A stretch of 64,000 nt of DNA from the NCBI GenBank assembly GCA_040881685.1, contig JBBECS010000015.1, forward strand, positions 3,736 to 67,735, given 5' to 3'. This DNA comes from Acidimicrobiia bacterium. GTDB taxonomy: Bacteria > Actinomycetota > Acidimicrobiia > IMCC26256 > PALSA-555. Below the pieces are notes generated by a model. The model had not been told where the DNA came from, did not search any database, and saw only the letters and a program-made list of their open reading frames with translations. The position numbers and the translations under genes are program-made. How positions within the stretch are numbered: position 1 is the stretch's first letter; every line of letters begins with the position of its first letter. Below, one piece after another: positions 55-46,211 of this stretch.

Positions 55-150
55 GGCTACCGACCGCGGCGCAGGCACCGTGCGCCGCAGGTAGCCGTTC
101 GCCGAAGTGGAGCGGAGCGGCCCGGCGCGAAGCGCCGAGAGCGGGAAGAG
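55..150 (+). repeat. structured repeat copy D (long hairpin 55-96, then GAGCGG / CGGCGC-GAA-GCGCCG / GAGCGGGAAG)
   Basis: GGCTACC(55-61) pairs with GGTAGCC(90-96), and GCGGCGCA(66-73) pairs with TGCGCCGC(81-88). The 30-nt core 115-144 is identical to 27080-27109. The element ends about 20 nt before the GTG at 173. Confidence 0.75.
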
Positions 151-172
151 TGGGACGCTAGCGTTCACGCCC

Positions 173-2020
173 GTGAAGGCACTTCGTCTCGTCGCGGTCT
201 CGTTCGTCGTCGCCGGCTCGGTGCTCGTCTGTGCCGGGACCGCCAGCGCGGGTTCGAGCGAGGGGATCCGCAACTACGAGGTCGAGATCAAGATCGAACC
301 CACCGGCGCACTGCTGATCACCGAGACGATCGACTACGACTTCGGCGACTTCGCCGTCGACCGTCACGGAATCTTCCGCGACATCCCGGTGCGCTTCGAC
401 TACCCGAAGAAGGACAACACCGACCGGGTCTACGAGATCGAGGTTGTCTCGGTCTCAGGGTCGGAGGGGACACCCGACCAGTACGAGACCTCCGAGTTCA
501 CCGAGGGCAGCGTCGGGTTCTTCGAGATCAAGATCGGCGACGCCAACACGACGATCGAAGGCGAGCACACCTACGAGATCGTGTACCGGGTCAAGGGTGC
601 ACTCAACGGGTTCAGGGACCACGACGAGCTCTACTGGAATGCGATCGGCGACCAGTGGGGGGTGATCGTCGATCACGCCGTGGCCACGGTCGACGCACCC
701 GCCGACATCACGGCGATTCGTTGCTTCCAAGGCGCGTACAGCTCGACGGCGGAGTGCGAGCGGTCCTCCAGCGACGGCTCGACGGCGTCGTTCGCCGAGA
801 CCGACCTGTTCCCGTTCAACGCGATGACCGTGGTGATCGCACTTCCGAAGGGCGCGGTTCCGAACCCGAACAAGCAGCGGATCTTCGAAGAACGGTGGAC
901 GGTCGGGAAGGCGTTCGACCTCACGCCCACCACGGGCGGCCTCGCCGGTGGTCTGTTCCTGGCCGGCGTCGGTGGCTACGTGCTCGCGTTCCAGCGCTTC
1001 GGGCGCGATCGCCGCTACAAGGGCGGCGCCGTCGACCACGCCTTCGGCACCGAGGGCGGTCCCGACGAGGTCACCCCGTTGTTCGGTGCCGACGCGGAGA
1101 CCCCGGTGGAGTTTGTGCCGCTCGACGACCTGGGGCCCGGGCAGGTCGGGACGCTCGTCGACTTCCATGCCAACCCGCTCGACGTCACCGCGACCATCGT
1201 CGACCTCGCGGTGCGCAAGTACCTCCTGATCGAAGAGGTACCCACCGAGTCGAAGTGGCTCAAGAACGACTGGAAGCTCACGCGACTCAAGAAGTCCGAT
1301 GAGGACCTCAAAGACTACGAGAAAGCGCTCCTGCAGGGTCTCTTCCAGGGGCGCGACGACGGCGACGTCGAGCTCTCGGAGCTCAAGTACAAGTTCGCGG
1401 CCCGCATGCAGAAGGTGCAGGCCGCGCTGGACAAGGATGCCAAGGACCAGGGCTGGTTCATCAAGGACCCGAGCAAGGCGTGCGTGAGCATCGGCTGCCT
1501 CGGGATGGTGGTCGAGCTTGTCGGCATCGCGGTCACCGGGGTGCTGGCAGCCTTCACCAACCTGGGGTTGCTCGGGATCCCGATCATCATCCTCGGACTC
1601 ATCATCATGTTCAGTGGCGCCTGGGCACCGGCGCGCAGCGCGAAGGGGTCGGCGATCCTGCGCCGTGTGCACGGCTTCCGTCGGTTCATCGAGGAGTCCG
1701 AGAAGCCGCGCGCAGAGTTCGCCGAGAAGAAAAACCTCTTCTCTGAGTACCTCCCGTACGCCATCGTGTTCGGCGCGGTCGACAAGTGGGCCCGCACGTT
1801 CCAAGCGCTCGCGGGCGAGCCGCCCGACACGTCGTACTGGTACCGGTCGACCACACCCTTCGAGTACGTAGCGTTCTCGAGTGCCATCAACGGGTTCACC
1901 ACGACGACCGCGGGCACGCTCACGTCGAGTCCACCCTCCACATCGGGATCCAGCGGGTTCAGCGGCGGTGGTGGCTTCTCCGGTGGTGGCGGTGGCGGCG
2001 GCGGCGGAGGCTCCTGGTAA
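173..2020 (+). CDS. DUF2207-like membrane protein with Gly-rich C-terminus
   Basis: ORF 107..2020. A GTG at 173 gives MKALRLVAVSFVVAGSVLVCAGTASA, a signal-peptide-like N-terminus. The N-terminal domain reads YEVEIKIEPTGALLITETIDYDF..GIFRDIP. TM helices follow, then the tail SGFSGGGGFSGGGGGGGGGGSW. The start could also be the GTG at 107, which reads through the repeat. Confidence 0.8.
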   Translation: MKALRLVAVSFVVAGSVLVCAGTASAGSSEGIRNYEVEIKIEPTGALLITETIDYDFGDFAVDRHGIFRDIPVRFDYPKKDNTDRVYEIEVVSVSGSEGTPDQYETSEFTEGSVGFFEIKIGDANTTIEGEHTYEIVYRVKGALNGFRDHDELYWNAIGDQWGVIVDHAVATVDAPADITAIRCFQGAYSSTAECERSSSDGSTASFAETDLFPFNAMTVVIALPKGAVPNPNKQRIFEERWTVGKAFDLTPTTGGLAGGLFLAGVGGYVLAFQRFGRDRRYKGGAVDHAFGTEGGPDEVTPLFGADAETPVEFVPLDDLGPGQVGTLVDFHANPLDVTATIVDLAVRKYLLIEEVPTESKWLKNDWKLTRLKKSDEDLKDYEKALLQGLFQGRDDGDVELSELKYKFAARMQKVQAALDKDAKDQGWFIKDPSKACVSIGCLGMVVELVGIAVTGVLAAFTNLGLLGIPIIILGLIIMFSGAWAPARSAKGSAILRRVHGFRRFIEESEKPRAEFAEKKNLFSEYLPYAIVFGAVDKWARTFQALAGEPPDTSYWYRSTTPFEYVAFSSAINGFTTTTAGTLTSSPPSTSGSSGFSGGGGFSGGGGGGGGGGSW

Positions 2021-3165
2021 TGGCCGGTCCGCTCGCGGGAGTGAAGATCGTCGAGCTGGTTGGCATCGGCCCGGGCCCGTTCGCCGCGATGTTGTTGGCC
2101 GACATGGGTGCCGAGGTCGTGCGCGTGCACCGCACGGAGTCGGTGGCGCGGGGCTTCGATCCCGGTGGCGTGCCGGTGCTCGATCGCAATCGCCGCTCTA
2201 TCGGGGTCGACCTGAAGAACCCCGACGGCATCGAGACCGTGCTGCGACTCGTCGAGCAGGCCGACGCGCTCATCGAGGGGTTCCGTCCCGGCGTCACCGA
2301 GCGCCTCGGCGTGGGCCCCGACGATTGCATGGCGCGCAACCCCCGCCTCGTCTACGGCCGCATGACGGGTTGGGGCCAAGACGGCCCGATGGCCAACGCC
2401 GCCGGCCACGACATCAACTACATCTCGCTTGCCGGCGCTCTCGCACACTTCGGCCGTGAGGGCCAGAAGCCCACGCCGCCGATCAACCTCATCGGCGACT
2501 TCGGTGGGGGCGGCATGTTCCTCGCGTTTGGAACCGTCTGTGGAGTGCTGGAGGCGCGCGGGTCAGGCAAGGGTCAGGTGGTGGACGCGGCCATGGTCGA
2601 TGGTTCGGCCGTGCTCATGTCGATGATCTGGGGCTTCCGCGTGATGAACGCGTTCGACGAGGAGAACCGCGGCACCAACGTGCTCGACACCGGCTGCCCG
2701 TTCTACGACTCGTACGAGACCAAGGACGGCAAGCTCATCTCGCTCGGTTCACTCGAACCGCAGTTCTACGCCGAGCTGATGGAGAAGACGGGCCTCGCAT
2801 CCGAGGATCTCGGCGAGCAGATGGACCGCGACAAGTGGCCGAAGCTCCGCGAACGGTTCACCGAGCTGTTCAAGACCAAGACGCGCGACGAGTGGAACGC
2901 GATCCTCGAAGGCAGCGACGCGTGCTACTCGCCAGTGCTCACCATGACGGAGGCTGCGCAGCACCCGCACATCAAGGCGCGCGACACCGTCGTCGACTTC
3001 GAGGGGATCCTCCAGCCCGCACCGGCGCCGCGCTTCTCGCGCACAAAACCCGAGATCACCCGGAGTGCGGCGAAACCCGGGGAGCACACCGACGAGGTGC
3101 TCACCGAGTGGGGCTTCACCGGAGACGAGCTCGCCAAGCTCCGGGACGCCGGGGCGATCGCCTGA
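2020..3165 (+). CDS. mcr: alpha-methylacyl-CoA racemase (family III CoA-transferase)
   Basis: The ATG at 2020 overlaps the upstream TAA. MAGPLAGVKIVELVGIGPGPFAAMLLADMGAEVVRVHR, GHDINYISLAG, GKGQVVDAAMVDG and LEPQFYAELMEKTGL align along the whole length with AMACR/Mcr as I remember them. Confidence 0.85.
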   Translation: MAGPLAGVKIVELVGIGPGPFAAMLLADMGAEVVRVHRTESVARGFDPGGVPVLDRNRRSIGVDLKNPDGIETVLRLVEQADALIEGFRPGVTERLGVGPDDCMARNPRLVYGRMTGWGQDGPMANAAGHDINYISLAGALAHFGREGQKPTPPINLIGDFGGGGMFLAFGTVCGVLEARGSGKGQVVDAAMVDGSAVLMSMIWGFRVMNAFDEENRGTNVLDTGCPFYDSYETKDGKLISLGSLEPQFYAELMEKTGLASEDLGEQMDRDKWPKLRERFTELFKTKTRDEWNAILEGSDACYSPVLTMTEAAQHPHIKARDTVVDFEGILQPAPAPRFSRTKPEITRSAAKPGEHTDEVLTEWGFTGDELAKLRDAGAIA

Positions 3166-3216
3166 ACCGCTCGTCAAGCGCGAGTTCGGTTCAAACTCCT
3201 CTTGACGCTGATCGAA

Positions 3217-3233
3217 AGCGGCGTGTCACGCCG
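3217..3233. terminator. GC hairpin between convergent mcr and the HNH gene
   Basis: GCGGCGTG-T-CACGCCGC is a perfect 8-bp inverted repeat spanning the HNH gene stop codon. There is no U-tract. Confidence 0.3.
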
Positions 3234-4398
3234 CGCTGCTATGGGGTGGCGCCCGTAGGGACCAGGTGCTGTCGGTGTTGTCGATGACCTCGTAGCCGCG
3301 GTGGGTGATGAGGTCGTGGTGTTCGGGGCACACGTCGCCGAGGACCCGGTAGCTGGTGATTCGGTTGTCGGCGTAGCCGAGGGTGTGGTGGCGTTCGGTG
3401 GCGCGAGTGTGGTCGCAGTCGCGGATCTTGCAGACGCCGCCGTCACGTTCGTCGATGGCGATTTTCAACGCCTTGGGGACGTGACGGGTCGTGCTCACGA
3501 CGCTCTGGACGTCGACACCGTCGGTGATCACCAGCTCCAATAAGCCGTGCGACAGCACCTCTCGGGCGTAGTCGACGGGGACGGGCCCGACGCCGGGGAT
3601 CTCGCAGACGTCTTCGACCCCGTCGGCGGGACGGTCGAGGAGCTTGTCGAGGCCGACGCGTACGCGCACCACGGGCTTCGTGCTCGCCGGGACCTGCGCG
3701 CCGCGGGCCAGGGCGACGAGCGCGTCGAATCTGTACGCGGCCAGGGGTTGGTGCTCTCCCGTCTTCCGGGCGGCTTCGAAGGCTGCGCGGGCGAGTGGTT
3801 CGAGTGCTTCGAAGAGATCGGTGACCTCTTCGGTAGGACCCGAGAACGAGCCGTGGGTCGCGAAGCCGCGGGCCCAGCCGGCCAGGTGGCGTTCGTCGCG
3901 GGCGATCTTGCGGAGACGGTCCTCGTCGGACGCTGCCGTCACCACACGTTCCTTTGCTGCTCGAAGCTCCCGGAAGCCACGCTTGGTGGCTCGCAGCATC
4001 CGGCCTTCTGATGCAGGGTCGACCGACGCGGCTGCGGTGACCTGCGCCGCCTGCGCCAATGACACTTCCCCGGCGCGCAGCTTCTCGGCAGTTGTCGGGA
4101 GGTCGACCAGGCGATCGGCGGTGGTGAGCGTCTCGCGGGCGGCGTGCTCCGACGTACCGGTCACGTTGGCGAACCACTGCTCCGGCGACACCGCGTGTGA
4201 TGCGTTGCGCCAGGCGCCGGTGTCGACCGCGCGCTTGGCATGCAGCATCGTAATCGTCTGGGCGATCTTGACGATGTCGGCACTGACCTGCGCACACGAG
4301 ACCGCGTCCGCGCCTGCGTAGCAATCGGCATCAAGTGTCGCCGAGTACTCCTGCAGTCCGTCGCGGATGTCGACCAACGCGCTCATGACGTGCAGCAT
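3226..4398 (-). CDS. DUF222 + HNH endonuclease domain protein (REP13E12-like)
   Basis: The N-terminal helical region reads LHAKRAVDTGAWR..AERLVDLPTTAEKLRAGEVSLAQAAQV. The C-terminal HNH region reads CKIRDCDHTRATERHHTLGYADN...CPEHHDLITH. The alternative start ATG is at 4386. Confidence 0.85.
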   Translation of the reverse strand: MLHVMSALVDIRDGLQEYSATLDADCYAGADAVSCAQVSADIVKIAQTITMLHAKRAVDTGAWRNASHAVSPEQWFANVTGTSEHAARETLTTADRLVDLPTTAEKLRAGEVSLAQAAQVTAAASVDPASEGRMLRATKRGFRELRAAKERVVTAASDEDRLRKIARDERHLAGWARGFATHGSFSGPTEEVTDLFEALEPLARAAFEAARKTGEHQPLAAYRFDALVALARGAQVPASTKPVVRVRVGLDKLLDRPADGVEDVCEIPGVGPVPVDYAREVLSHGLLELVITDGVDVQSVVSTTRHVPKALKIAIDERDGGVCKIRDCDHTRATERHHTLGYADNRITSYRVLGDVCPEHHDLITHRGYEVIDNTDSTWSLRAPPHSSAA

Positions 4399-4429
4399 GG
4401 CAGGGGGGTGTGACAGTCAAGCCGCCTGT

Positions 4430-4478
4430 CAAGGAGAAATCTTGAGAAATCTCGAAAATCTCAAAGAAGATCTTCGAC
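4430..4478. promoter_or_regulatory. AT-rich island with nested inverted repeats upstream of the HNH gene
   Basis: GGAGAAATCTTGAGAAATCTCGAAAATCTCAAAGAAGATCTTCGA contains TTGAGA..TCTCAA and the 10-nt palindrome GAAGATCTTC. It is strikingly low-GC for this window and lies 32-80 nt upstream of the start at 4398. Confidence 0.3.
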
Positions 4479-4542
4479 GTGAGCATTTGCGGCGCGAGCG
4501 TTCACTCTCGGCGTGGACACTCCGGAGCAAGTGCGCGCATCG

Positions 4543-5673: not shown

Positions 5674-5770
5674 GGGAATCGCGACAGCGCCGTCGCCGAG
5701 GCCCACCCCCGGTCCCATCACGAGCGAGGACGCTGTGCAGCACTCCACCGGCTTCGGCCGGTCCCACACC

Positions 5771-10357
<4,587 letters not shown>

Positions 10358-10365
10358 TCCAAGAC

Positions 10366-19090: not shown

Positions 19091-19170
19091 CGGTCGAAGG
19101 TACGACGAGGGTGCGACACCGCCGCGGATGGGCTCTTCGACTCTTCAGCGGGGGCCATGGGATTTGTCCC

Positions 19171-19362
19171 GCCGCATTTGCGGCACCAAAGCCGCCCCGA
19201 GCGAAGCGAGGGAGGCGAGGGGGAGCACGAGGCGGGGCGAACCCCGAGGCCCCGCAACAACGTCCGGCGCGCAACATCCGGCGCGCGGCCTGCCCTTCCC
19301 CGTGAACAAAGTTGGGCCCCGAGTAGCCATTGCGCCGGAGCGCTCCGGACTCCTCGGGGCCC
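19171..19362. repeat. cluster of GC hairpins and repeat-family words in a 650-bp non-coding region
   Basis: The cluster contains GCCGCA-TT-TGCGGC (19171-84), GAGCGAAGCGAGG, GCACGAGGCGGGGC (also present in copy F) and GCGGGGC..GCCCCGC (19232-55). TCCGGCGCGC occurs twice (19263-72 and 19277-86). GGGCCCCGAG (19314-23) pairs with CTCGGGGCCC (19353-62) and encloses the palindrome CCGGAGCGCTCCGG (19335-48). Confidence 0.6.
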
Positions 19363-19646
19363 ATTCCCTTTGCACCAAGTCTCCACGTGGCGTCGCACCC
19401 GGGTGGGCGCGCCCGCCGCCGTTGCCGCCTTCCGGGCGGGACACCCGGTCGCCGGTCTCGACATCGGCACCGGCTCGCCGACCCGAAGGCCAGCTCGCCG
19501 ACCATCGACGCTTCCGACCCGTCTTCCGCTGGGTTCCTCGGGTTGCCCCTCGGAGGTCCGCACCGGTCCCGTGCCGTTCGCGTCGTCGGCATTGGGCACA
19601 GTAGGGACGTCCCGTCAACCGGTCAAGAGGAAATTCGCCCCAGAGA

Positions 19647-19700
19647 GCAGGCGAGCGCCCGGAGGCCCGCCGGGTATCCCGGCGGCGAGCGAGCGCGACC
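19647..19700 (+). repeat. structured repeat copy A
   Basis: GCAGGCGAGCGCCC..CGCCGGG-TAT-CCCGGCG-GCGAGCGAGCGCGACC, with the hairpin at 19668-19684. It lies 40 nt upstream of the next gene start. Confidence 0.7.
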
Positions 19701-19739
19701 AGCAAAGGGACGTCGAGAAGATTTCGAGAACGCGTTACC

Positions 19740-26729: not shown

Positions 26730-27134
26730 ATGAGTGTCGTGCGCATCAATGCCATCAGTGTCCCCACCGAACGCGCCGAGGAGCTCGAACGCAGGTTCGC
26801 CGCTCGGGCGGGGGAGGTGTCGGGTTCGCCCGGGTTCGAGGCTTTCGAGCTCCTGCGGCCCAGCGACGAGCGCGATGTGTACCTCGTGTACACCCGCTGG
26901 AGGTCCGAGGAGGACTTCAACGCGTGGGTGAGCAGCCCGGCATTCGAGCACGGTCACCGAGCGCACGCGACCGAGGGGCCGGTCACCAGCCACAGCGAGC
27001 TGTGGTCCTTCGAGGTGATCCAGCACGAGGAGGCGAGCGACCGTGGGACGGGTACCCCGGACCGCAGCGAGCCGGGGCCAGAGCGGCCCGGCGCGAAGCG
27101 CCGAGAGCGGAATCAGGAGTCGGCCGCGGGCTGA
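26730..27134 (+). CDS. heme-degrading monooxygenase-like ABM domain protein (MhuD/IsdG-like) with a repeat-derived C-terminal tail
   Basis: MSVVRINAISVP..ELERRFA.RAG.V..SPGF..FELLRP......YLVYTRW.SEEDF.AW is close to my memory of MhuD. The last roughly 30 residues (..PDRSEPGPERPGAKRRERNQESAAG) are encoded by repeat copy E. Confidence 0.8.
   Translation: MSVVRINAISVPTERAEELERRFAARAGEVSGSPGFEAFELLRPSDERDVYLVYTRWRSEEDFNAWVSSPAFEHGHRAHATEGPVTSHSELWSFEVIQHEEASDRGTGTPDRSEPGPERPGAKRRERNQESAAG
27044..27110 (+). repeat. structured repeat copy E (inside the 3' end of the mhuD-like ORF)
   Basis: GGGACGGG-TAC-CCCGGACC, then GCAGCGAGCCGGGGCCAGAGCGG, CGGCGC-GAA-GCGCCG (27088-27102) and GAGAGCGGA. Positions 27080-27109 are identical to 115-144. 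Confidence 0.75.
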
Positions 27135-29622: not shown

Positions 29623-29648
29623 TGCGGCGCCGGAGGCGCTGGCCAGGG

Positions 29649-29693
29649 AGAGAGCGACCGCGGCGCACGTATCGTGCGTCGCAGTGAGCGACC
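29649..29693 (+). repeat. structured repeat copy M (direct repeat - hairpin - direct repeat)
   Basis: AGAGCGACC, then GCGGCGCACG-TAT-CGTGCGTCGC (29660-29682, one G-T pair), then AGTGAGCGACC. It lies between the convergent PRTase and pckG ends. Confidence 0.75.
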
Positions 29694-29697
29694 GAGT

Positions 29698-32301: not shown

Positions 32302-32331
32302 GACAGATTCCTCGCAAACTCGGGGGACAGG

Positions 32332-32377
32332 AGCGAGCGACCGCGAGTCGGGTATCCCGGCTCGCAGCGAGCGACCC
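32332..32377 (+). repeat. structured repeat copy B (direct repeat - hairpin - direct repeat)
   Basis: AGCGAGCGACC, then GCGAGTCGGG-TAT-CCCGGCTCGC (32343-32365, one T-G pair), then AGCGAGCGACCC. It lies in the divergent rpmB/DAK2 intergenic region. Confidence 0.8.
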
Positions 32378-32404
32378 ATGTGGGGGCGATGGTAGCAAGC
32401 GCTC

Positions 32405-34088: not shown

Positions 34089-34139
34089 AGCGCAGTGGAA
34101 CCGTCCTCGGATGAGCGGGACGGTGAAGCGGAGCGACCC
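34089..34139 (+). repeat. structured repeat copy H (H/I subtype)
   Basis: AGTGGAA, then CCGTCC-TCGGATGAGCG-GGACGG (34101-34123), then TGAAGCGGAGCGACCC. It lies 15 nt upstream of the recG GTG and is near-identical in layout to copy I. Confidence 0.7.
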
Positions 34140-34153
34140 ATAATGGCGACCTT

Positions 34154-36358
34154 GTGAATGAGCGCGTCGCGGCGGGGATCACCTTGCGCGAGCTGCGAGA
34201 CAAGCCTGCGTCCGACCTGCGCGCGGTGGGTTCGAAGTTGGCGACCCGGCTCGAGGCGATGGAACTCATGAGCGTGCTCGACCTGCTCGAGCACTACCCG
34301 CGTCGGTATCACGACCGCACCAAGGTCCAGGACATCGCCGAGCTGGCGATCGGCGAGGAGGCGACGGTCACGGGTGAGGTGAAGAAGGTCTCGGTGCGTC
34401 GACCGCGCAACCGCCGCCCCTTGGTGGAGATGGAGGTGTTCGACGGCACCTCCTACCTGCGGCTCACGTTCTTCAACCAGGAGTACCGGGCGAAAATCAC
34501 GGAAGGCACCGAGATCTCGGTCTTCGGCAAGGTCGACCTGTATCGCGGCCGGCGTCAGATGGTGAACCCCGCGCTCGACGTGCTCGGCAATCCCGGCGAG
34601 CAGACGACCGGCGTCCTGCTCCCCGTGTACCCCCAGTCGGGGAAGGCGGGTGTGCAGACGTGGGAGCTCCGGAAGGTTGCCGCGGAGCTGCTCCAGCGCG
34701 TTCGTGCTCGCGGGTTCGCCGACCCGGTTGATGTGGGCGTGCTTCGAGCGCGCGGCCTCGTCGATCGAACGACCGCCTATTCGGCGATCCACCGCCCTGA
34801 GACCTTGGGCGAAGTCGAGGTCGCCAAGGCGCGCCTCACGTTCGACGAGTTCCTCCGCATGCAGGTGGGCCTGGTCGCGCGCAAGCGTGCGCTCGAGCGC
34901 GATCGAAGTGGCATCGAGCATCAGGTCGACGGTCCGCTCGTCCCGGCGTTCCACGCCGCGCTCCCGTTCCCGTTGACTGACGACCAGCAGCGCGCGATCG
35001 CCGAGATCGGCCAGGACATGGCCGCGCCTGCGCCGATGCACCGGCTGCTCCAAGGCGAGGTGGGATCGGGCAAGACCGTGGTGGCGCTCACCGCGCTCCT
35101 GATGGCCGTGCAAGGCGGCTACCAAGGCGCGTTCATGGCGCCGACGGAGGTGCTCGCCGAGCAGCACGACCTCACGTTGCGATCGCTGCTCGACGGCCTG
35201 CACGTCCCGGCCGAGGGCAGCCTGCTGGGCGACCGGCCCATCGGCGTCGCCCTGCTCACCAACCGCACCGCGGCCGCCGAACGGCGCCGCATCGCCGACG
35301 GCTTGCGCTCGGGAGAGATCGACATCCTCGTCGGCACGCACGCGCTGATCTACGAGGGGGTCGAGTTCGCGCGCCTCGGCGTAGCGGTGGTCGACGAGCA
35401 GCACCGGTTCGGCGTCGAGCAACGCGACCTGCTGCGCGGAAAAGGTCCGCGGCGAGCGTCCCAAGGGGCGGCGCCGGGTATCCCGGCGCCTAGCGAGCCT
35501 GCCGAATACGGGGGATCCGACGTGCTCGTGATGACAGCGACGCCGATCCCACGGACGGCGGCGATGCTCATCTACGGCGACCTGGACCGCTCCGAGCTGC
35601 GCAGTCTCCCGGCCGGCCGTTCGCCGATCACCACCGAGATCGTGGGCCCGATGCCGATGGAGCGCACGCCGGTCTACGAGCGCCTGCGCGCCGAGGTCGA
35701 CGCCGGCCGCCAGGCCTACGTCGTGTGCCCGCTCGTGGAGGGTTCCGAGAAGCTCGAGGCCAAAGCGGCGACCGAGGAACACGCGCGGCTCGCGGCCGAA
35801 GAGCTTGCAGGGTTGCGCCTCGGCCTGCTGCACGGGCAGATGCCGTCGCGAGACAAGGAAGCGATGATGACGCGCTTCCGAGCGCACGAGATCGATGTGC
35901 TCGTCGCCACCACCGTGGTCGAGGTCGGAGTTGATGTGCCGAACGCGACCGTGATGATCGTCGAAGATGCTGATCGCTTCGGGCTCCTCCAGCTCCACCA
36001 GCTGCGCGGTCGCATCGGTCGCGGCGCGCACCGTTCGTGGTGCTATCTGCTCGCCGATCCGGTCACGAACGAAGCCAAGGCGCGACTCCAGGCGATGGTC
36101 AACTCCTCCGACGGCTTCGAGCTCGCGGAGCGCGACCTCGAGATCCGCGGCGAGGGCGCGGTGTTCGGCGAGCGGCAGTCGGGCTGGAGCGACCTCAAGC
36201 TCGGTCGCCTCCCGCGCGACGAGCCGATCGTGATGGAGGCCCGCGCCGTGGCCGAGTCCATCCTCGGCGCCGACCCAGAGCTCGAACGACATCCGCAGCT
36301 GCGTGAAGAGGTCGAGGATCTGCTCGGCGACGCGGTCGAGTTCCTCTTCAAGAGCTGA
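34154..36358 (+). CDS. recG: ATP-dependent DNA helicase RecG (carrying an in-frame repeat insertion)
   Basis: Wedge/OB N-terminus, then LLQGEVGSGKTVVA, VVDEQHRFGV, LVMTATPIPRT, HGQMPSRDKE and LHQLRGRIGRG. About 18-20 extra residues lie between the DEQH box and MTATPIPRT. Confidence 0.95.
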   Translation: MNERVAAGITLRELRDKPASDLRAVGSKLATRLEAMELMSVLDLLEHYPRRYHDRTKVQDIAELAIGEEATVTGEVKKVSVRRPRNRRPLVEMEVFDGTSYLRLTFFNQEYRAKITEGTEISVFGKVDLYRGRRQMVNPALDVLGNPGEQTTGVLLPVYPQSGKAGVQTWELRKVAAELLQRVRARGFADPVDVGVLRARGLVDRTTAYSAIHRPETLGEVEVAKARLTFDEFLRMQVGLVARKRALERDRSGIEHQVDGPLVPAFHAALPFPLTDDQQRAIAEIGQDMAAPAPMHRLLQGEVGSGKTVVALTALLMAVQGGYQGAFMAPTEVLAEQHDLTLRSLLDGLHVPAEGSLLGDRPIGVALLTNRTAAAERRRIADGLRSGEIDILVGTHALIYEGVEFARLGVAVVDEQHRFGVEQRDLLRGKGPRRASQGAAPGIPAPSEPAEYGGSDVLVMTATPIPRTAAMLIYGDLDRSELRSLPAGRSPITTEIVGPMPMERTPVYERLRAEVDAGRQAYVVCPLVEGSEKLEAKAATEEHARLAAEELAGLRLGLLHGQMPSRDKEAMMTRFRAHEIDVLVATTVVEVGVDVPNATVMIVEDADRFGLLQLHQLRGRIGRGAHRSWCYLLADPVTNEAKARLQAMVNSSDGFELAERDLEIRGEGAVFGERQSGWSDLKLGRLPRDEPIVMEARAVAESILGADPELERHPQLREEVEDLLGDAVEFLFKS
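35449..35503 (+). repeat. structured repeat copy C, in frame inside recG
   Basis: GCGGCGAGCGTCCCAAGG, then GGCGCCGGG-TAT-CCCGGCGCC (35470-35490, perfect 9-bp stem), then TAGCGAGCCTGCC. It is translated as RRASQGAAPGIPAPSEPA. Confidence 0.75.
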
Positions 36359-36918: not shown

Positions 36919-36939
36919 CCCGACGAAGGAGGGATCGGC

Positions 36940-37437
36940 GTGGCAACGGCGCTCTGCCCGGGCTCCTTCGATCCCGTCACCAACGGGCACCTCGACATCA
37001 TCGAACGCACGGCGCGGCACTTCGACACGGTGATCGTCGCGGTCATCCGCAACCCGCAGAAGTCCCAGTCGCTCTTCACCCTCGAAGAGCGCCAGGAGAT
37101 GCTGCACGAGGTGACCGCCCACCTGTCCAACATCAAGATCGAGTTCTTCAAGGGGTTGCTCGTCGAGTTCGCCAAGGACCACGGCGCGTCGGCCATCGTC
37201 AAGGGGCTGCGGGCCATCTCCGACTTCGACTACGAGCTCCAGATGGCGCAGATGAACCAGAGCCTGTCGGGCATCGACACCTTCTTCATCTCCACGAGCC
37301 CGCAGTACTCGTTCCTCTCGTCGAGCCTCGTGCGCGAGGTGGCGAAGTTCGGTGGCGACGTGTCGAGCATGGTTCCCGCCGTCGTCGCGAAGCGGCTCGA
37401 CGCCCGCTTCGGGGGGCCCAGCCGCGACAAGGCATGA
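36940..37437 (+). CDS. coaD: phosphopantetheine adenylyltransferase
   Basis: ALCPGSFDPVTNGHLDIIERTA and GLRAISDFDYELQMAQMN. Confidence 0.95.
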   Translation: MATALCPGSFDPVTNGHLDIIERTARHFDTVIVAVIRNPQKSQSLFTLEERQEMLHEVTAHLSNIKIEFFKGLLVEFAKDHGASAIVKGLRAISDFDYELQMAQMNQSLSGIDTFFISTSPQYSFLSSSLVREVAKFGGDVSSMVPAVVAKRLDARFGGPSRDKA

Positions 37438-37523
37438 GCCGAGCATTCGCGCCGCAGGTACCCTGCGGCGCACGAGGCGGGGCCTCAGCGGCCCGGCGCG
37501 AAGCGCCAGGAGCGGGAAGGTGA
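37434..37523 (+). repeat. structured repeat copy F, also a 29-codon intercistronic mini-ORF
   Basis: The ATG at 37434 overlaps the coaD TGA (ATGA). The ORF MSRAFAPQVPCGARGGASAARREAPGAGR ends at TGA 37521-23, which overlaps GTG 37520 of the next gene (GTGA). Hairpin 1 is GCGCCGCAGG-TAC-CCTGCGGCGC (37449-71) and hairpin 2 is CGGCGC-GAA-GCGCC (37494-37507). Confidence 0.75.
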
Positions 37524-38071: not shown

Positions 38072-38120
38072 ATGGTCGCGCTCGGCCCGTTGAGCCCGTT
38101 CGGCTGCTCCGACGGTAACT

Positions 38121-38155
38121 GGGAAAATCTGGAAATCGGCGGTCGCTGCTAGGAT
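38121..38155 (+). promoter_or_regulatory. AT-rich patch / candidate promoter upstream of yceD-rpmF-plsX
   Basis: GGGAAAATCTGGAAATCGGCGGTCGCTGCTAGGAT contains TAGGAT as a possible -10 and an AT-rich stretch upstream. There is no experimental support. Confidence 0.25.
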
Positions 38156-38166
38156 CAGATGCCCAC

Positions 38167-38232
38167 CTCGAGCGGGCTCGGTGGAGCCGTCGGACCACCG
38201 ACGGAGGCGTTGCCTCGGCTCCCCCGCTCGAG
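38167..38232 (+). other. 66-nt nested stem-loop in the yceD leader
   Basis: CTCGAGCGGG (38167-76) pairs with CCCGCTCGAG (38223-32) and encloses CCGTCGG-ACCA-CCGACGG. It ends 36 nt before the yceD ATG. Confidence 0.55.
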
Positions 38233-38267
38233 CCACCTACGCACGGCCGCGGGCCGGCCGTCAGGCC

Positions 38268-38732: not shown

Positions 38733-38772
38733 CACCCGCCGCGAAGACCCGACCCGAGGAGCACACCACGCC

Positions 38773-38952: not shown

Positions 38953-38956
38953 CTCC

Positions 38957-40996: not shown

Positions 40997-41825
40997 GCTA
41001 CCGGAAGTCGAGGTCGTTCGACGAGACCTCGAGCGAGAGATCATCGGCAAGCGCGTGAAGGCCGTCGAGGTGGACGGCATGCGCTCCGTTCGCCGCCATC
41101 ACAACCGGAAGCAGTTCATCAGCCGGCTCGAGGGCAAGAGGTTCATCAGCGTCGAGCGGCGCGGCAAGTACCTCCTGTGCCGCATCGAGGGGAACGACGT
41201 GCTCGTCATCCATCTCGGCATGTCGGGCCAGCTGCTCCGGGCAAAGACCGGGCGAGACGCCAAGGCCAAGCACACCCATGTGACGATCACGTTCACCCAG
41301 GGTGGCCAACTGCGCTTCATCGACCCGCGCACGTTCGGTGAGATGTTCGTGACCGAGGTCGACGCGCTCGCGCGGGTCAGCGAGCTGTCCCACCTCGGGA
41401 TCGACCCGCTCGAGAACGCGATGTCCTGGGAGCAGTTCGGCAGCCTCATCACGAACAAGCACGCCAAGCTCAAGCCGCTGCTCATGGACCAGAAGTTCCT
41501 CGCCGGCATCGGCAACATCTACAGCGACGAGATCCTCTGGGGAGCGGGCTTGCGTTGGGATCGCATGAGCGACTCACTCTCCGCGCAGGAGGTGCGCCGC
41601 CTCTACCGGGCGATGGTCGAGACGCTCCAGGACGCCGTGAAGTACCGGGGGTCGTCACTCGCCGACATGCAGTACGTCGACCTGCACGGCAAGCCCGGCG
41701 AGTACCAGCTCCACCACAAGGTGTACGCGCACGACGGCGACTCGTGCCGTCGCTGTCGCCACGCGATCGTGCGCGAGCGCTACGGCGGTCGCTCCACCTA
41801 CTACTGCGAGGCATGCCAGGTCTAG
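40989..41825 (+). CDS. mutM: formamidopyrimidine-DNA glycosylase
   Basis: MPELPEVEVVRRDL at the N-terminus, and a C-terminal zinc finger CRRCRHAIVRERYGGRSTYYCEACQ. Confidence 0.95.
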   Translation: MPELPEVEVVRRDLEREIIGKRVKAVEVDGMRSVRRHHNRKQFISRLEGKRFISVERRGKYLLCRIEGNDVLVIHLGMSGQLLRAKTGRDAKAKHTHVTITFTQGGQLRFIDPRTFGEMFVTEVDALARVSELSHLGIDPLENAMSWEQFGSLITNKHAKLKPLLMDQKFLAGIGNIYSDEILWGAGLRWDRMSDSLSAQEVRRLYRAMVETLQDAVKYRGSSLADMQYVDLHGKPGEYQLHHKVYAHDGDSCRRCRHAIVRERYGGRSTYYCEACQV

Positions 41826-41831
41826 AGCCTT

Positions 41832-41879
41832 GGTCGCACTCGCTCGGCGCCCGGGTTACCCGGTCGCCGCCCTTCGGGC
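41832..41879 (-). repeat. structured repeat copy K (only clear inverted copy)
   Basis: The minus strand reads GCCC-GAA-GGGC, GGCGACCGGG-TAA-CCCGGGCGCC (one A/G mismatch), GAGCGAGTGCGACC. It lies between mutM and acyP. Confidence 0.65.
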
Positions 41880-41890
41880 CGGTCGCCGCG

Positions 41891-42172
41891 TTGACTGAGC
41901 CGGATCGTGTTCGCCGGCACGTCTGGGTCGATGGGCGGGTGCAGAACGTGTGGTTCCGTGACGCGTGCCGACGCGAGGCGTTGGCGCAGGGCGTCGACGG
42001 CTGGGTCCAGAACCTCGGCGACGGCCGTGTGGAGGCCGTGTTCGAGGGGCCACCCGAGGCCGTCGCCGTGCTCGTCGCCTGGTGCCAGGACGGGCCTCCG
42101 CGTGCGCAGGTCAGCCGGGTCGAGGTCCGCGACGAGCTCTTGGGAGCCGAGGACGGGTTCGCGGTGCGCTGA
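41891..42172 (+). CDS. acyP: acylphosphatase
   Basis: VWVDGRVQNVWFRDACRREALAQGVDGWVQNLGDGRVEAVFEGP is the acylphosphatase signature. The TTG start at 41891 is inferred. Confidence 0.8.
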   Translation: MTEPDRVRRHVWVDGRVQNVWFRDACRREALAQGVDGWVQNLGDGRVEAVFEGPPEAVAVLVAWCQDGPPRAQVSRVEVRDELLGAEDGFAVR

Positions 42173-42246
42173 CCTGCCCTGACGCCGGGTGCTCGGCATT
42201 CACGAAGCCCCTCGGTACGATCCGCTCGTGAACGCGATCGCGAGCC

Positions 42247-42329
42247 AGAGCGAGCGCTCGCGTCGCAGGTACCCTGCGGCGCAGCGAGCGGGGCCCGAGC
42301 GGCCCGGCCCGCAGGGCCGAGAGCGGGAC
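42247..42329 (+). repeat. structured repeat copy G, abutting the smc start
   Basis: AGAGCGAGCGCTC, GCGTCGCAGG-TAC-CCTGCGGCGC (42260-82, one T-G pair), AGCGAGCGGGGCCCGAGCGG, CGGCCC-GCA-GGGCCG (42305-19), AGAGCGGGAC. An open frame through it ends at TGA 42330-32, overlapping the smc ATG at 42332. Confidence 0.8.
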
Positions 42330-42331
42330 TG

Positions 42332-45232
42332 ATGTTCCTCAAGTCGCTCACGCTGAAGGGCTTCAAGTCGTTCGCCGAGAAGACGACGCTCGACTTCGAG
42401 CCCGGCGTCACCGTGGTGGTCGGCCCGAACGGATCGGGCAAGTCCAACCTCGTCGACGCCGTGGCGTGGGTGCTCGGCGCCCAGGGCCCGCGCAGCCTTC
42501 GAGGCGGGAAGATGGACGACGTCATCTTCGCGGGCACACCGCAGCGCCAGGCCCTCGGGCGCTGCGAGGTCACGCTCACGATCGACAACACCACCGGCTT
42601 GCTCCCGATCGACTTCTCCGAGGTCACGTTCACGCGCACGCTGTTCCGCACCGGTGAGTCGGAGTACGCGCTCAACGGGGTGCCGTGTCGATTGCTCGAC
42701 TTGCAGGAGCTGCTGTCCGACACCGGAATCGGTCGCCAGCAGCACGTGATCGTCGGTCAAGGACAGCTCGACACGATCTTGAACGCGTCGGCCTTCGACC
42801 GCCGCGGCATCGTCGAAGAAGCCGCGGGCATCCTGAAGTACCGCAAGCGCAAGGAGCGCGCCGAGCGGCGGCTCCTCACCACCGAAGGCAACCTGATCCG
42901 CCTCAATGACCTGCTGCGCGAGGTCAAGCGCCAGCTCACGCCCCTCCAGCGCCAAGCGGAGGCCGCGCAGAAGCACGGGAGCGTCGTCGGGGAGCTGCGG
43001 GCGATCAAGCTCCACTTGGCCGGCCACCAGATCGCTGGTTTCCAGACGCGCCTCGAGCGTCTGAACGACGAGCGGGCTGACCTCGCCACACGAGACGACG
43101 AGCTCCGAAGCCGTCTGCGCCAGCTCGACGACTCGGTGCTGGACGCAGAGCACTCGCTCACGGCACTCGGGGGCGATGGCGTCGCCGACTGGGTGGTGCG
43201 CGTCGAATCGCTGCGCGAGCGCGGGAGAGGTCTCGCGGCACTCGTCGGCGAGAAGCGTCGCGGTGTCCAGCGGGAGCTGACCGCCGCGGCCGACATGGGC
43301 GTCGCGGAGACCCTCGTTGCCGATCAGGTCGGGTTGCGCAACGAGCTCGAGACGCTCGACGCGCAGGTCGATGGGCTCACGCTGCCCGGCACCGATGCGC
43401 AGATCGCGGCAGACACGGCCGAGGAGACGCTGAGCGCGGCCGAGGATCGCTGGCGCGTCGCCGAAGGAGATGCGGCGCGCGCCCGCGCCCGCGCCGACGC
43501 CATGGAGCAGCAGCTGCGAGCGGCGCGCGCCGATGCCGCCACGGCGGAGCTGGACGCGATCGACGGTGTCGTTGGCCCGGTGATCGATCACCTCGAGATC
43601 GAGTCGGGTGCCGAGGCCGCCGTTGCCGCCGCGCTCGGCGAGGCGATGCGCGCCGTGGTCGTGCGCGCCGGCGACGCGGCGAGGTCGGCGGTCGAACGGC
43701 TGCATTCGGGCGACGCGCGCGCGCTCGTGCTCGTGGTCGATCCCGACCGCACGCCGTCCCTGCGCAGCGTTGATGCGCCGCCAGGCGCGCGCCCGGTGGT
43801 CGACCTCGTCCGCACGCAGGTTCCTGGTCTCGCCGAGGCGCTCGCGCGTCTGCTGGCCCGGTCGGTGCTCGTGGGAGACTGGCGCACCGCGCTTGACCTC
43901 GTGCTGGCTCGGCCCGATCTCGTCGCGGTGACCACCGACGGCGACCGGCTCGGTGGTGACGGCGTCTGGAACGTTGGAGGCGCGGCGGCCCCGGTCATTA
44001 CCCAAGCCGCGCTCGACGAGGCGCTCGCGCGGGCCGCGGCGGCCGACGTCACGCGGGCCGAGGCCCAGCGAACGGTCGAGTCGGCCCGGGCCGCCCTGGC
44101 TGCGGCGCGCGCGGCGGAGCTGCGGCGGGCCGCGGTCGAAGAGCGCCGCGCCGTGCTCGCGGCGCGCCTCGGCGAGGTCGAGGCGAGGCTGGCGGCCCGC
44201 GACCCCGAGACCAACGCGGTGGCCGAGCGCCAGCGCGTGTCGCTGCTCGAGCGCGACGCCTCGTTCGCAACGCTGACGCGCCGGCTGGCCGACCATCGCG
44301 CCGCTGTGGACGCGCTCCACGATCGTGTGCGCGAACGGCGACGCCGGCAGGCCGACGCGGCACGCTCGTCGGCGGAGCAACTCGACTCCCTGCGCACCGA
44401 GCGTGCCGAGCTCGAGCGTGGGCTCGGCGAGGTCCGTGAGCGCCAGTCGCGCGCCGAGATCGATGACGCCGAGACGCGGATCAAGCTGGAGAGCTCGGTG
44501 GATGTGCTGCGCACCGAGTTCGACGTGGAGCCTGCCGCCGCGCTCGATGCGCCCGCGCCCGCGGTGCCGGAGGGCACCACGCTCGCGGGCCGTGCTCGCG
44601 AGCTCGAGCGCGAGGTGCGCTTGATGGGCCCGATCAACCCGCTCGCGCTGGAGGAGCACCGCGCTCTCGAAGAGCGCCACGAGTTCCTCTCCGGGCAGCT
44701 CGAAGACGTGCGCTCGAGTCGCAAGGAGCTCACGCGCGTCGTGCGTGCCGTGGACGCTGAGATCGTGAAGGTCTTCGAGCAGGCGTTCGCCGACGTGTCG
44801 GAGCACTACATGCGGCTCTTCGCCACGCTGTTCCCCGGCGGCCAGGGTCGACTCCTGCTCACTGATCCCGAGAACCTCCTCGAGACCGGGATCGAGATCG
44901 ACGCCCGTCCGTTGGGCAAGAACGTCCGGCGGCTGTCGCTGCTGTCGGGTGGCGAGCGTTCACTTGCGGCGCTCGCGTTCCTGTTCGCGGTGTTCCGCGC
45001 CCGCCCGTCGCCCTTCTACCTGCTCGACGAGGTCGAGGCCGCGCTCGACGACGTGAACCTGCACCGGTTCCTCGATCTCGTCGACGAGTTTCGCGACGAA
45101 GCGCAGCTGGTGATCGTCACGCACCAGAAGCGCACGATGGAGGCTGGCGACATCCTCTATGGCGTCTCGATGCCGCCGGGCGGGTCGACCCGCGTCGTCT
45201 CGCAGCGCGTCAGCGACGTCGTCGAAGCCTGA
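42332..45232 (+). CDS. smc: chromosome segregation protein SMC
   Basis: MFLKSLTLKGFKSFA...GPNGSGKSN, long coiled coils, hinge (IDGVVGPVIDHLEIE..AVAAALG), and the C-terminal LSGGERSLAALAFLFA and FYLLDEVEAALD. Confidence 0.95.
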   Translation: MFLKSLTLKGFKSFAEKTTLDFEPGVTVVVGPNGSGKSNLVDAVAWVLGAQGPRSLRGGKMDDVIFAGTPQRQALGRCEVTLTIDNTTGLLPIDFSEVTFTRTLFRTGESEYALNGVPCRLLDLQELLSDTGIGRQQHVIVGQGQLDTILNASAFDRRGIVEEAAGILKYRKRKERAERRLLTTEGNLIRLNDLLREVKRQLTPLQRQAEAAQKHGSVVGELRAIKLHLAGHQIAGFQTRLERLNDERADLATRDDELRSRLRQLDDSVLDAEHSLTALGGDGVADWVVRVESLRERGRGLAALVGEKRRGVQRELTAAADMGVAETLVADQVGLRNELETLDAQVDGLTLPGTDAQIAADTAEETLSAAEDRWRVAEGDAARARARADAMEQQLRAARADAATAELDAIDGVVGPVIDHLEIESGAEAAVAAALGEAMRAVVVRAGDAARSAVERLHSGDARALVLVVDPDRTPSLRSVDAPPGARPVVDLVRTQVPGLAEALARLLARSVLVGDWRTALDLVLARPDLVAVTTDGDRLGGDGVWNVGGAAAPVITQAALDEALARAAAADVTRAEAQRTVESARAALAAARAAELRRAAVEERRAVLAARLGEVEARLAARDPETNAVAERQRVSLLERDASFATLTRRLADHRAAVDALHDRVRERRRRQADAARSSAEQLDSLRTERAELERGLGEVRERQSRAEIDDAETRIKLESSVDVLRTEFDVEPAAALDAPAPAVPEGTTLAGRARELEREVRLMGPINPLALEEHRALEERHEFLSGQLEDVRSSRKELTRVVRAVDAEIVKVFEQAFADVSEHYMRLFATLFPGGQGRLLLTDPENLLETGIEIDARPLGKNVRRLSLLSGGERSLAALAFLFAVFRARPSPFYLLDEVEAALDDVNLHRFLDLVDEFRDEAQLVIVTHQKRTMEAGDILYGVSMPPGGSTRVVSQRVSDVVEA

Positions 45233-45234
45233 GC

Positions 45235-46158
45235 GTGTTGCTGGGTGCGCTCCTCACGCAGGCCGCGGGGGAGAAGGTTGCGGCGTGCGGTCCCACCGCT
45301 GACCAGTCGTGGCTCTGCTCGACGGTCTACGAGATCACGGGCAACCGCGATGCCGCGGAGCTGGCCGACACGTTGGCGAGCCCGATCCGCATCGTCTTCA
45401 TCGTCGGGCTCGCGGTGCTTGCAACCTGGTTCTCCCGCCGACTGATCCGGCGGCTCGCGCGGCGGGTGACGACGGCACCGCAGATCGGGCCCCTGTCCGG
45501 CGCCCGCCGCGCGCAACGTATCGAGACCATGACGCATGTGACGAGCAGCATCGTCACCGTCCTCATCTCCCTGATCGCGTTGTTCGTCGTGCTCGGCGAG
45601 ATCGGCGTGGACATTGCGCCGCTGATTGCTGGTGCCGGCGTGATGGGCGTTGCGCTCGGGTTCGGAGCGCAGAGCATCGTGCGGGACTTCCTCTCCGGCT
45701 TGTTCATGGTGGGCGAGGACCAGTTCGGCGTGGGTGACGTGATCGATGTCGGCGGCGTCGTCGGGACGGTCGAGGGCTTCACGCTGCGGGTCACGCGGCT
45801 GCGCGACATCGAGGGGAGCGTCTGGCACGTGCCGAACGGCGAGATCAAGCGGGTGGGCAACCAGTCCCAGCAGTGGGCGCGCGCCGTGCTCGACCTCGCG
45901 GTCGCCTACGACACCGACATCCCGCAGGCCACCACGTTGATCGAAGAGGTGGTCGGCGCGATGTGGCATGACCCCGAGTGGACTCCGCAGATGCTGTCGG
46001 AACCTGAGGTGTGGGGTGTCGAGGCGTTCGTGCCCGAGGGTCCCGTCATCCGCACCGTGGTGAAGACCAAGCCGCACGAGCAGTGGAGGATCGCGCGCGA
46101 GATGCGCGCTCGCATCCTGGCGGCGTTCGACGAGGCCGGCATCCAGATCCGCCGGTAA
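45235..46158 (+). CDS. mechanosensitive ion channel (MscS) family protein
   Basis: Three TM helices, then LSGLFMVGEDQFGVGDVIDVGGVVGTVEGFTLRVTRLRDIEGSVWHVPNG. Confidence 0.85.
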   Translation: MLLGALLTQAAGEKVAACGPTADQSWLCSTVYEITGNRDAAELADTLASPIRIVFIVGLAVLATWFSRRLIRRLARRVTTAPQIGPLSGARRAQRIETMTHVTSSIVTVLISLIALFVVLGEIGVDIAPLIAGAGVMGVALGFGAQSIVRDFLSGLFMVGEDQFGVGDVIDVGGVVGTVEGFTLRVTRLRDIEGSVWHVPNGEIKRVGNQSQQWARAVLDLAVAYDTDIPQATTLIEEVVGAMWHDPEWTPQMLSEPEVWGVEAFVPEGPVIRTVVKTKPHEQWRIAREMRARILAAFDEAGIQIRR

Positions 46159-46211
46159 GGAGCGGAGCGGAGCCGTGCTCGGATGAGCGGGACGGCGGAG
46201 CGAAGCGACCC
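46158..46211 (+). repeat. structured repeat copy I (H/I subtype)
   Basis: AGGAGCGGAGCGGAG, then CCGTGC-TCGGATGAGCG-GGACGG (46173-95), then CGGAGCGAAGCGACCC. It starts at the mscS stop codon and is in frame with ftsY. Confidence 0.7.

Follow-up and report, generated by a model that had tools for sequence, protein, structure and literature searches.

Rickettsia palindromic elements (RPE) are about 100 to 150 nt long, are restricted to Rickettsia, and are said to have been described by Ogata et al. in 2000 as inserted in frame within protein-coding genes. Miniature inverted-repeat transposable elements (MITEs) of the enterobacterial RU and enterobacterial repetitive intergenic consensus (ERIC) type and of the Neisseria Correia type have long terminal inverted repeats and target-site duplications, TA in the case of Correia elements. 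Mycobacterial interspersed repetitive units (MIRUs; Supply et al. 1997, summarised in PMC12548453, PMC6286618) are 40- to 100-nt units of operon spacers that are oriented like the genes and form head-to-tail arrays, and one summary gives an internal open reading frame (ORF) that overlaps the downstream gene by 4 nt and is thereby coupled to it (PMC12548453). Repetitive extragenic palindromic (REP) sequences are defined by a GT(A/G)G head, alternating or inverted clusters, and a REP-associated tyrosine transposase (RAYT) (PMC2817692), and RU elements are small non-autonomous repeats that are cotranscribed with their neighbors, may carry ORFs, and occasionally lie inside genes (PMC2759123). Here we analyze a family of short structured repeats from a 64,000-nt stretch, termed the window, of an Acidimicrobiia genome (contig JBBECS010000015.1, positions 3,736 to 67,735, assembly GCA_040881685.1). 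By sequence or defining features it belongs to none of MIRU, REP, and RPE, the last being compared by description only; it is apparently an undescribed family within the short interspersed bacterial repeats, no description having been found in the sources searched. We consider it likely that these are non-autonomous modular repeats that are gained and lost, are transcribed with their host operons, and are tolerated by keeping the reading frame and the signals at gene boundaries. Acidimicrobiia, almost all of which are uncultured, abound in soil, freshwater, and the ocean, and to our knowledge nothing is known of their repeat content or post-transcriptional organization.

An inspection of the letters of the window (the original prediction) had proposed a dispersed family with 11 clear copies, labelled A to I, K, and M, and five looser relatives. 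All 11 copies were present, either exactly as placed or a few bases away (Table 1), and an unbiased repeat search of the window recovered copies as families D6, D7, and D12 to D14. The family was statistically real. Two degenerate patterns, one for each hairpin module, gave four window matches each and none in dinucleotide shuffles. Hairpins closed by a TAT or TAC triloop, listed as a shared building block, numbered six with at least 8 paired bases, all on the plus strand, and the reverse loop (ATA or GTA) did not occur among the window triloop hairpins with at least 8 pairs. A covariance model, R1, built from eight copies recovered those eight and copy K (minus strand, 22 bits) and nothing more in the window, indicating that no hidden copies are present there. 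The 30-mer reported as identical in D and E was found at 115-144 in D, as given, and at 27081-27110 rather than 27080-27109 in E. The looser relatives did not hold up: none matched R1, and the words GCGAGCG and GAGCGG are frequent on both strands (GCGAGCG alone occurs 43 times on one strand of the window and 47 times on the other). These five appear to be what would be expected of an artefact of chance or of composition, the genome having 69% G+C and many GAGCG-type words. This explanation was refuted for the 11 clear copies by the empty shuffles, by covarying stems, by at least 146 model hits in relatives, and by the lack of any hit in 20 off-target loci, and as an account of the family it has next to no probability.

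The window contains nine copies of a first module (M1), four of a second (M2), and two of a third (M3). M1 is about 51 to 54 nt long and comprises a GCGAGCG-type 5′ flank (GCGAGCGNCC in a loop-anchored alignment), a G+C-rich covarying stem of 10 bp, a TAY triloop, and the 3′ flank AGCGAGCG. In the stem, 92.5% of cells were paired and 7 of the 10 pairs had changed on both sides; the observed covariation score was reached by none of 500 shuffles, and slid controls were 35 to 49% paired. The loop and the loop-proximal pairs were the most conserved part of M1, covariation being located in the lower stem. M2, GAGCGGCCCGGC-NCG-NAG-NGCC-GAGAGCGG, forms the second small hairpin that had been noted in D, E, F, and G; all four window copies lie directly 3′ of M1. 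This hairpin also covaries (98.8% paired over 17 copies, with double changes in three of the five pairs), and its 3′ end, GAGAGCGGGAA, is followed by a start codon 0 to 8 nt further on. H and I had been counted as copies like the others. They share an 18-nt core, CTCGGATGAGCGGGACGG, and a tail, GAGCGACCC, and constitute M3, a separate module without the TAY hairpin, which is connected with the family through flank words in common and through a direct fusion of M3 to the 3′ side of M1 in another locus (L018).

Discrete hairpin subfamilies, such as GCGGCGCAGG-TAC-CCTGCGCCGC and GCGAGCCGGG-TAT-CCCGGCTCGC, recurred across species, and a third variant, GCGAGCCGGG-TAT-CCCGGCGAGC, had two base pairs replaced by tandem G.A/A.G mismatches. 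Identical 23-nt hairpins were present in different species at unrelated loci. Longer alignments revealed 3′ termini of several kinds (...GCGCGACCAGAAA, ...GAGGCAATAGAG, ...GACCCATG, and ...CCGGGGCC followed by M2) and further conserved 5′ modules in some subfamilies. The combination of shared 5′ modules with several 3′ termini indicated that the family is a mosaic, as bacterial interspersed mosaic elements (BIMEs) and BOX elements are. The stems are kept paired by selection or homogenization. A promoter, with TACCCT in the loop as a −10 box, was rejected: no sigma-70-like sites were found in a scan, and the TAT-loop majority does not fit.

Species-representative genomes were scanned with the M1 pattern, yielding at least 120 loci, and matches were confirmed with R1 at E < 0.01; counts across genomes here and below are among the matches listed. 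At least 146 M1 copies in at least 100 loci were confirmed. A hand tally of record titles gave about 44 assemblies, nearly all of them Acidimicrobiia, Actinomycetes, or Actinomycetota, and 20 loci from clearly different phyla had no R1 hit and were the chance matches to be expected. The family is spread class-wide in the Acidimicrobiia, with probably hundreds of copies per genome. High-scoring copies, at 70 to 84% G+C, were observed in metagenome-assembled genomes (MAGs) labelled Bifidobacteriaceae, Bifidobacterium breve, Gemmatimonadales, or Eisenbacteria (loci L020, L022, L025, L033, L048, L051, L058, L065, L079, L083, L090, L098, L121, L127; L044, L049; L077). Probably these labels are wrong or the contigs were misbinned. 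Copies and arrays were frequently situated at MAG contig ends or beside runs of N (L009 1-48, L023 1-42, L098 about 640-750, L121 7045-7200, and L130 1195-1297). The repeats apparently break short-read assemblies of Acidimicrobiia, and the family would account for the N gaps and broken contigs of MAGs from these bacteria.

The family had not been recognized as a described one, and database searches agreed. For the whole window, Rfam 15 gave no match at the gathering threshold and nothing relevant at E ≤ 1; focused stretches, including a tandem array, gave nothing relevant at E ≤ 10. Full-text literature searches with hairpin strings returned only unrelated mammalian primers, and a topic search yielded no paper on Acidimicrobiia repeats. 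Distant blastn against plasmids gave no match. Four pattern matches in viral contigs were not confirmed by R1 and are therefore chance hits.

The window carries a conserved housekeeping gene order (gltBD ... ddl, PEPCK, rpmB, Dak2/FakA-like, recG, rsmD, coaD, continuing with yceD-rpmF-plsX-acpP-rnc-fpg, smc, ftsY-ffh, and rpsP ... rpsB-tsf-pyrH-frr). Its G+C content is 68.6%, and NCBI names its RecG as an Acidimicrobiia bacterium protein. Gene calls and Pfam context were taken from JBBDJN010000012.1 (MAG GCA_040879835.1), which contains the identical stretch in reversed orientation. Syntenic regions of four relatives were obtained through their RecG homologues, with RecG identities of 89% (L129), 83% (L128), 71% (L130), and 70% (L131). 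Differences in the presence or absence of copies were detected at almost every compared site, and none of the compared junctions was occupied in every genome in which it could be examined (Table 1). Copies E, H, C, and F were missing from relatives at 83 to 89% RecG identity, L129 retaining a remnant of F. Where copy G was orthologous between the window and L128, a compensated A-U to G-C change and shifted G-U wobbles were found. Over times that correspond to genus-level divergence, copies are gained, lost, and amplified head-to-tail. The empty recG site reads AGCGAACCC and is similar to the flank word of the element itself, which fits either a preferred target or a deletion footprint between flanking direct repeats. 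Two stretches of L129 (4815-4853 and 3310-3332) hold internally deleted M1+M2 remnants, ATGAGGCGAGCGCCC joined to GCCGAGAGCGGG and ATGAGCCGAGGATTCGCGCC joined to ATG.

Table 1. Copies of the repeat family in the window and the state of the compared sites in relatives (M1 to M3, modules; R1, covariance model; L128 to L131, syntenic relatives)
Copy or site	Position	Strand	R1 score	Setting and particulars	Same site in relatives
D, M1	52..102	+	50.9 bits	flanks form outer inverted repeat GGCTACC/GGTAGCC; loop CAC	
D, M2 (GAGCGGCCCGGCGCGAAGCGCCGAGAGCGGGAA)	115..147	+		pattern match; 30-mer identical to E; upstream of DUF2207 gene (Pfam)	
A, M1, ...AGCGAGCGCGACCA subfamily	19651..19701	+	47.0 bits	divergent spacer, upstream of gene starting 19740	
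E, M1+M2	27029..27110	+	54.5 bits	in frame at 3′ end of ABM-domain ORF 26730-27134 (134 aa, +87 nt in frame)	no copy in L128 and L131 (105 aa)
M, M1	29646..29696	+	54.0 bits	between convergent phosphoribosyltransferase gene and PEPCK	
B, M1	32329..32384	+	62.1 bits	divergent spacer rpmB / Dak2/FakA-like gene; perfect 11-nt direct flanks AGCGAGCGACC; end ...GACCCATG; folding z-score -3.96	absent in L128 and L131
H, M3	34089..34139	+		fills spacer from Dak2/FakA-like stop to recG start, then chain of overlapping mini-ORFs (TAATG, then GTGA) into recG	L128: 5 nt stop-to-start
C, M1	35455..35505	+	47.2 bits	in frame inside recG; encodes ...RRASQGAAPGIPAPSEP...	lacking in L128 and L129; single in L131; tandem pair in L130
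F, M1+M2	37434..37523	+	52.0 bits	coaD-stop ATGA to next gene's GTGA	absent in L128 and L131; L129 remnant ATGAGCCGAGGATTCGCGCC ahead of ATG
K, degenerate M1	41831..41883	-	22.1 bits, E = 0.047	antisense, 6 nt past fpg stop	
G, M1+M2	42246..42331	+	60.4 bits	acyP to smc; terminal TGA overlaps smc ATG (TGATG)	present in L128; degenerate in L129; absent in L131
I, M3	46158..46211	+		between mscS-like stop and ftsY; 18-nt stretch identical to H	
rpmF to plsX				no copy in window	occupied in L128 and L131; L129 has an internally deleted remnant
ddl to asnC				no copy in window	copies in L128 and L131
just after acyP				no copy in window	inverted copy in L128 and L129

The proposed agreement in orientation between copies and adjacent genes was borne out: of the spacers between co-directional genes, 50 carried sense copies and 10 carried antisense copies (p = 1.6e-7). 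Where copies of opposite orientation occurred in one 8-kb locus (L022, L028, L017, and L094), each followed its own neighboring gene, indicating that the bias tracks transcription and not replication. Record gene calls were used to check four antisense copies (K, L129 3923, L128 19560, and L129 8168), and each of these lay just after the upstream stop codon. Adjacent copies within 300 nt formed 23 head-to-tail pairs and 2 inverted pairs. The statement that the copies do not form an array applies to the window, in which there are none; other genomes do contain tandem arrays, such as one of about 8 to 9 units with a 55-nt period that starts right after a stop codon (L071 7324-7751), an M2-only array with a 42-nt period (L121), and others in L108, L098, L025, L031, and elsewhere. 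A clustered regularly interspaced short palindromic repeat (CRISPR) array was rejected, the 42- to 63-nt periods consisting wholly of repeat units with no unique spacers.

Most copies were situated at gene boundaries, as had been proposed, while C lies within the recG ORF and E within the 3′ end of the ABM-domain ORF, so that two copies are exceptions to the intergenic location. The called start was exactly 5 nt past the end of the model in 12 copies. Short-spacer copies typically end ...AGCGAGCGAGGCAATAGAG immediately followed by ATG, which places GAGG about 8 nt ahead of the start, and in 13 copies the upstream stop overlapped the first bases of the model (TGAGGCGAGCGACC...). Copy F contains a mini-ORF of 29 codons that runs from the ATGA at the coaD stop through M1+M2 to the GTGA at the next gene. 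NTGA...NTGA units of M1+M2 with 29 to 30 codons were present at unrelated loci in L028 and L083; probably L106 has such a mini-ORF too, its contig ending ahead of the downstream ORF. Over all copies with an upstream stop that overlaps a start codon, the frame opened there ended on the start of a long ORF in 11 of 19 overlaps, against one-third expected (p = 0.024). A recoding signal resembling a selenocysteine insertion sequence (SECIS), with UGA and a hairpin 11 nt downstream, was rejected from the sequence: the hosts are housekeeping genes with no relation to one another, many copies come after TAG or are not preceded by a stop codon, and hairpins are also present well away from any stop.

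The likeness to MIRUs and to REP/BIME elements that had been remarked on survived testing. Like MIRUs, the copies occupy operon spacers in an actinobacterial lineage, follow gene orientation, form head-to-tail arrays of variable number, and sit at start codons. In F, L028, and L083, and likely in L106, a short ORF overlaps the stop and start of the neighbors in an architecture like that given for MIRUs, with modest statistical support over all copies. Homology to the MIRU motifs was rejected, the resemblance being at the level of words only; motifs A and B (PMC6286618) gave a mean local score of 18.7 versus 16.0 for shuffles, which is no meaningful similarity. The Acidimicrobiia family differs further in its strong covarying 10-bp hairpin with a conserved triloop, in its module mosaic, and in being hosted outside the mycobacteria, also in frame inside genes.

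Another explanation that bears on these positions is that the copies are terminators or attenuators without a U tract, as proposed for high-G+C actinobacteria, that set the expression ratio of neighboring genes. Stable stems do stand right after stop codons, and the antisense copies K, L129 3923, and L128 19560 are just past the upstream stop. Copy M stands at a convergent junction (window 29623-29697) at which L128 (5400-5465) has a canonical bidirectional terminator with an A tract, a 12-bp stem, and a T tract. However, the terminator scan called none of the copies between 27 and 47 kb, since none of these has a T tail. Many are 0 to 10 nt ahead of the start of an essential gene in a conserved operon, and several lie inside ORFs, where termination would be lethal. 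We consider this explanation very improbable.

The in-frame copies were analyzed in RecG. In an alignment, most homologues read LRGKG-xEP-DVLVMTATP, and the window protein carries PRRASQGAAPGIPAPSEPAEYGGS there. The insert is absent from the nearest homologues, a related insert is present in several lineages at 69 to 75% identity, and in one of these it is doubled. At the DNA level these recG inserts are R1 hits with intact hairpins, the stems of which differ between lineages. Other in-frame copies, of about 18 codons each, were found in hflX, where the copy separates the G domain from HflX_C, in the receiver domain of a response regulator, in the N domain of an acyl-CoA dehydrogenase, in the linker that precedes the C-terminal peptide of an EncFtn-like protein, and in a SnoaL-like protein. 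All of the in-ORF copies listed were sense, and the few calls of antisense copies inside ORFs seem to be errors of gene calling. All six frames of the consensus are free of stop codons, which therefore do not explain the orientation bias inside genes. These palindromes resemble RPE in adding a short loop or tail peptide to a protein with intact domains (recG, hflX, response regulator, acyl-CoA dehydrogenase, EncFtn linker, and ABM tail). They differ from RPE in that the units are shorter, the host is a different one, and most copies are intergenic.

Copies survive almost only where gene expression is unbroken, in short sense spacers and in in-frame protein loops or tails. The account that we favor for this distribution, of non-autonomous repeats tolerated within operons, would operate as follows. 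Copies would be transcribed as parts of the host mRNA. They would be tolerated by virtue of a sense strand free of stops and a unit length that is a multiple of three (54 nt for the unit and 87 to 90 nt for M1+M2). A stop codon would come with the 5′ end (TGAGGCGAGCG...), and the 3′ end would bring GGAG or GAGG as a Shine-Dalgarno-like sequence ahead of the start codon. A short ORF through the element, similar to that of MIRUs, would link the upstream stop to the downstream start such that translational coupling survives. The hairpin would probably act on the RNA in the manner of REP sequences, either by blocking exonucleases or as a structure at which cistrons are processed or insulated from each other. 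The family is best read as encoding no mobility functions of its own. The earlier statement that the window contains no transposase was supported among the Pfam-called genes, genes at about 19.7 to 26.7 kb being inspected as translations only.

Several points weigh against this account. Every RNA-level step in it is inferred from sequence. Wobble pairs gave no strand signal (13 G-U versus 10 A-C), which leaves room for a hairpin acting at the DNA level. The closeness of copies to gene boundaries is partly trivial, as an element of 55 to 110 nt in what would otherwise be a spacer of 0 to 20 nt must touch both genes, and genes in L008 to L127 were called with our own GC3-based caller, which is rough. 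The mini-ORF enrichment is modest, since open frames and NTGA junctions are frequent by chance at 69% G+C. The genome sample is biased towards subfamilies that fit the search pattern. The remnants in L129 indicated that "empty" sites can be deletion products and not only sites that were never occupied, no clean target-site duplication was found in the filled and empty pairs compared, and spread could have occurred by gene conversion or slippage between GCGAGCG words.

Mobilization by known routes was considered in relation to these points. With RU elements, ERIC sequences, and Correia MITEs the family has in common that its members are small non-autonomous repeats with possible ORFs and occasional in-gene copies. 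It differs from MITEs in that its only inverted repeat is the 10-bp stem, readable as terminal inverted repeats, and in that all copies are flanked by one and the same direct-repeat word (AGCGAGCG...). A REP/RAYT-type system, in which a domesticated tyrosine transposase of the IS200/IS605 type, with its gene at another place in the genome, acts on the hairpins as DNA and copies them as single strands, would be compatible with the wobble counts, which give no evidence of RNA-level constraint. It would also suit short, G+C-rich, imperfect palindromes of high copy number, kept pairing, and subfamilies. The family shares with REP/BIME elements these palindromes of 20 to 40 nt with complementary mutations, dimorphic or subfamily variants, mosaic composites, and a location at gene ends within transcription units. 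However, the palindrome has no GT(A/G)G head on its 5′ side, where the flank is GCGAGCGNCC, and clusters are direct (23 head-to-tail versus 2 inverted) rather than alternating or inverted doublets. By these defining features the family is not REP/BIME. Furthermore, no Y1-transposase family and no RAYT was present among the Pfam-annotated genes of the window, L001, L007, and L128 to L131. Orientation tracks local transcription even between divergent neighbors, and copies are mostly immediately upstream of start codons, with some within ORFs. A REP/RAYT-type origin is, in our judgment, quite unlikely.

A further alternative is that the element is a cis-acting RNA motif kept for regulation, with a trans partner (an RNA-binding protein or a ribonuclease) that recognizes the GGGUAUCCC or AGGUACCU tip together with the GCGAGCG flanks. 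Such a partner would be in keeping with conservation that is strongest in the loop and adjoining pairs and covariation in the lower stem, with the same 23-nt hairpins at unrelated loci of different species, with orientation following transcription, and with the compensatory change that kept orthologous copy G paired. A regulon is nevertheless unlikely. The neighbors are functionally unrelated (among them recG, smc, ftsY, coaD, the DUF2207 gene, and PEPCK), close relatives have gained and lost copies without any apparent cost, and no Rfam family matches. Arrays of up to about 8 units and in-frame copies in enzymes typify the proliferation of repeats rather than a regulon.

A more active role for the family is a tentative possibility. 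The repeats may be a class-wide mobile intercistronic cassette that targets stop/start junctions and tolerant in-frame sites without a RAYT and without classical terminal inverted repeats and target duplication. The cassette would bring a stop, a hairpin, a Shine-Dalgarno-like sequence, and a coupled mini-ORF, and would rewire translational coupling and the stability of mRNA segments across hundreds of Acidimicrobiia operons. Homing or template switching at GCGAGCG-like words is a candidate mechanism for its movement. If this were true, the family would be the functional counterpart of MIRUs, with a hairpin added, in a second class of actinobacteria. The mechanism of spread might differ from those of both RAYT-driven REPs and classical MITEs. 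The family also offers another independent system, the second, in which to ask whether coupling through mini-ORFs and hairpins between cistrons allow selfish repeats to colonize compact operons. For practical purposes, it is a ready marker of strain-level variation, like the mycobacterial MIRU loci with variable numbers of tandem repeats (MIRU-VNTR). Copies also produce annotation artefacts, such as the 29 additional codons of the ABM ORF, an uncertain ftsY start, and the odd RecG inserts.

With regard to ftsY, the annotated start at 46234 may lie too far downstream: an ORF (46183-47172) is listed from an ATG within copy I that is in frame with ftsY and adds 17 codons. This ATG was rejected as a conserved start codon of M3, relatives carrying ACG at that position. 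The spacer of about 560 nt between a UvrD-like helicase gene and copy A (19091-19650) contains several G+C-rich hairpins (e.g., GCCGCATTTGCGGC and GGGGCGAACCCC) and purine-rich GAGCGA/GAGGCG words and has no match to R1 or Rfam.

Other observations concerned the neighboring genes. A conserved noncoding stretch upstream of yceD-rpmF (window 38100-38267 and L129 3960-4130; CTGGGAAAATCTGGAAATC ... GCTGCTAGGATCAGATGCCCACCTCG...) had no Rfam match and may be a promoter and leader for the yceD-rpmF-plsX operon. Between recG and rsmD, L128 (12166-13682) has three fragmentary ORFs with HerA_C domains on the opposite strand; recG and rsmD abut in the window and in L131, and the HerA_C ORFs are either a lineage-specific insertion or a decaying gene. 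Near the start of the window, an ORF of 390 aa on the minus strand (3226-4398) has a Cys/His-rich, HNH-like C-terminal region with no significant Pfam hit. The adjoining interval from 2020 to 3226 is without a called gene, the coding signal is weaker around this ORF, and the ORF may be a remnant of a mobile element.

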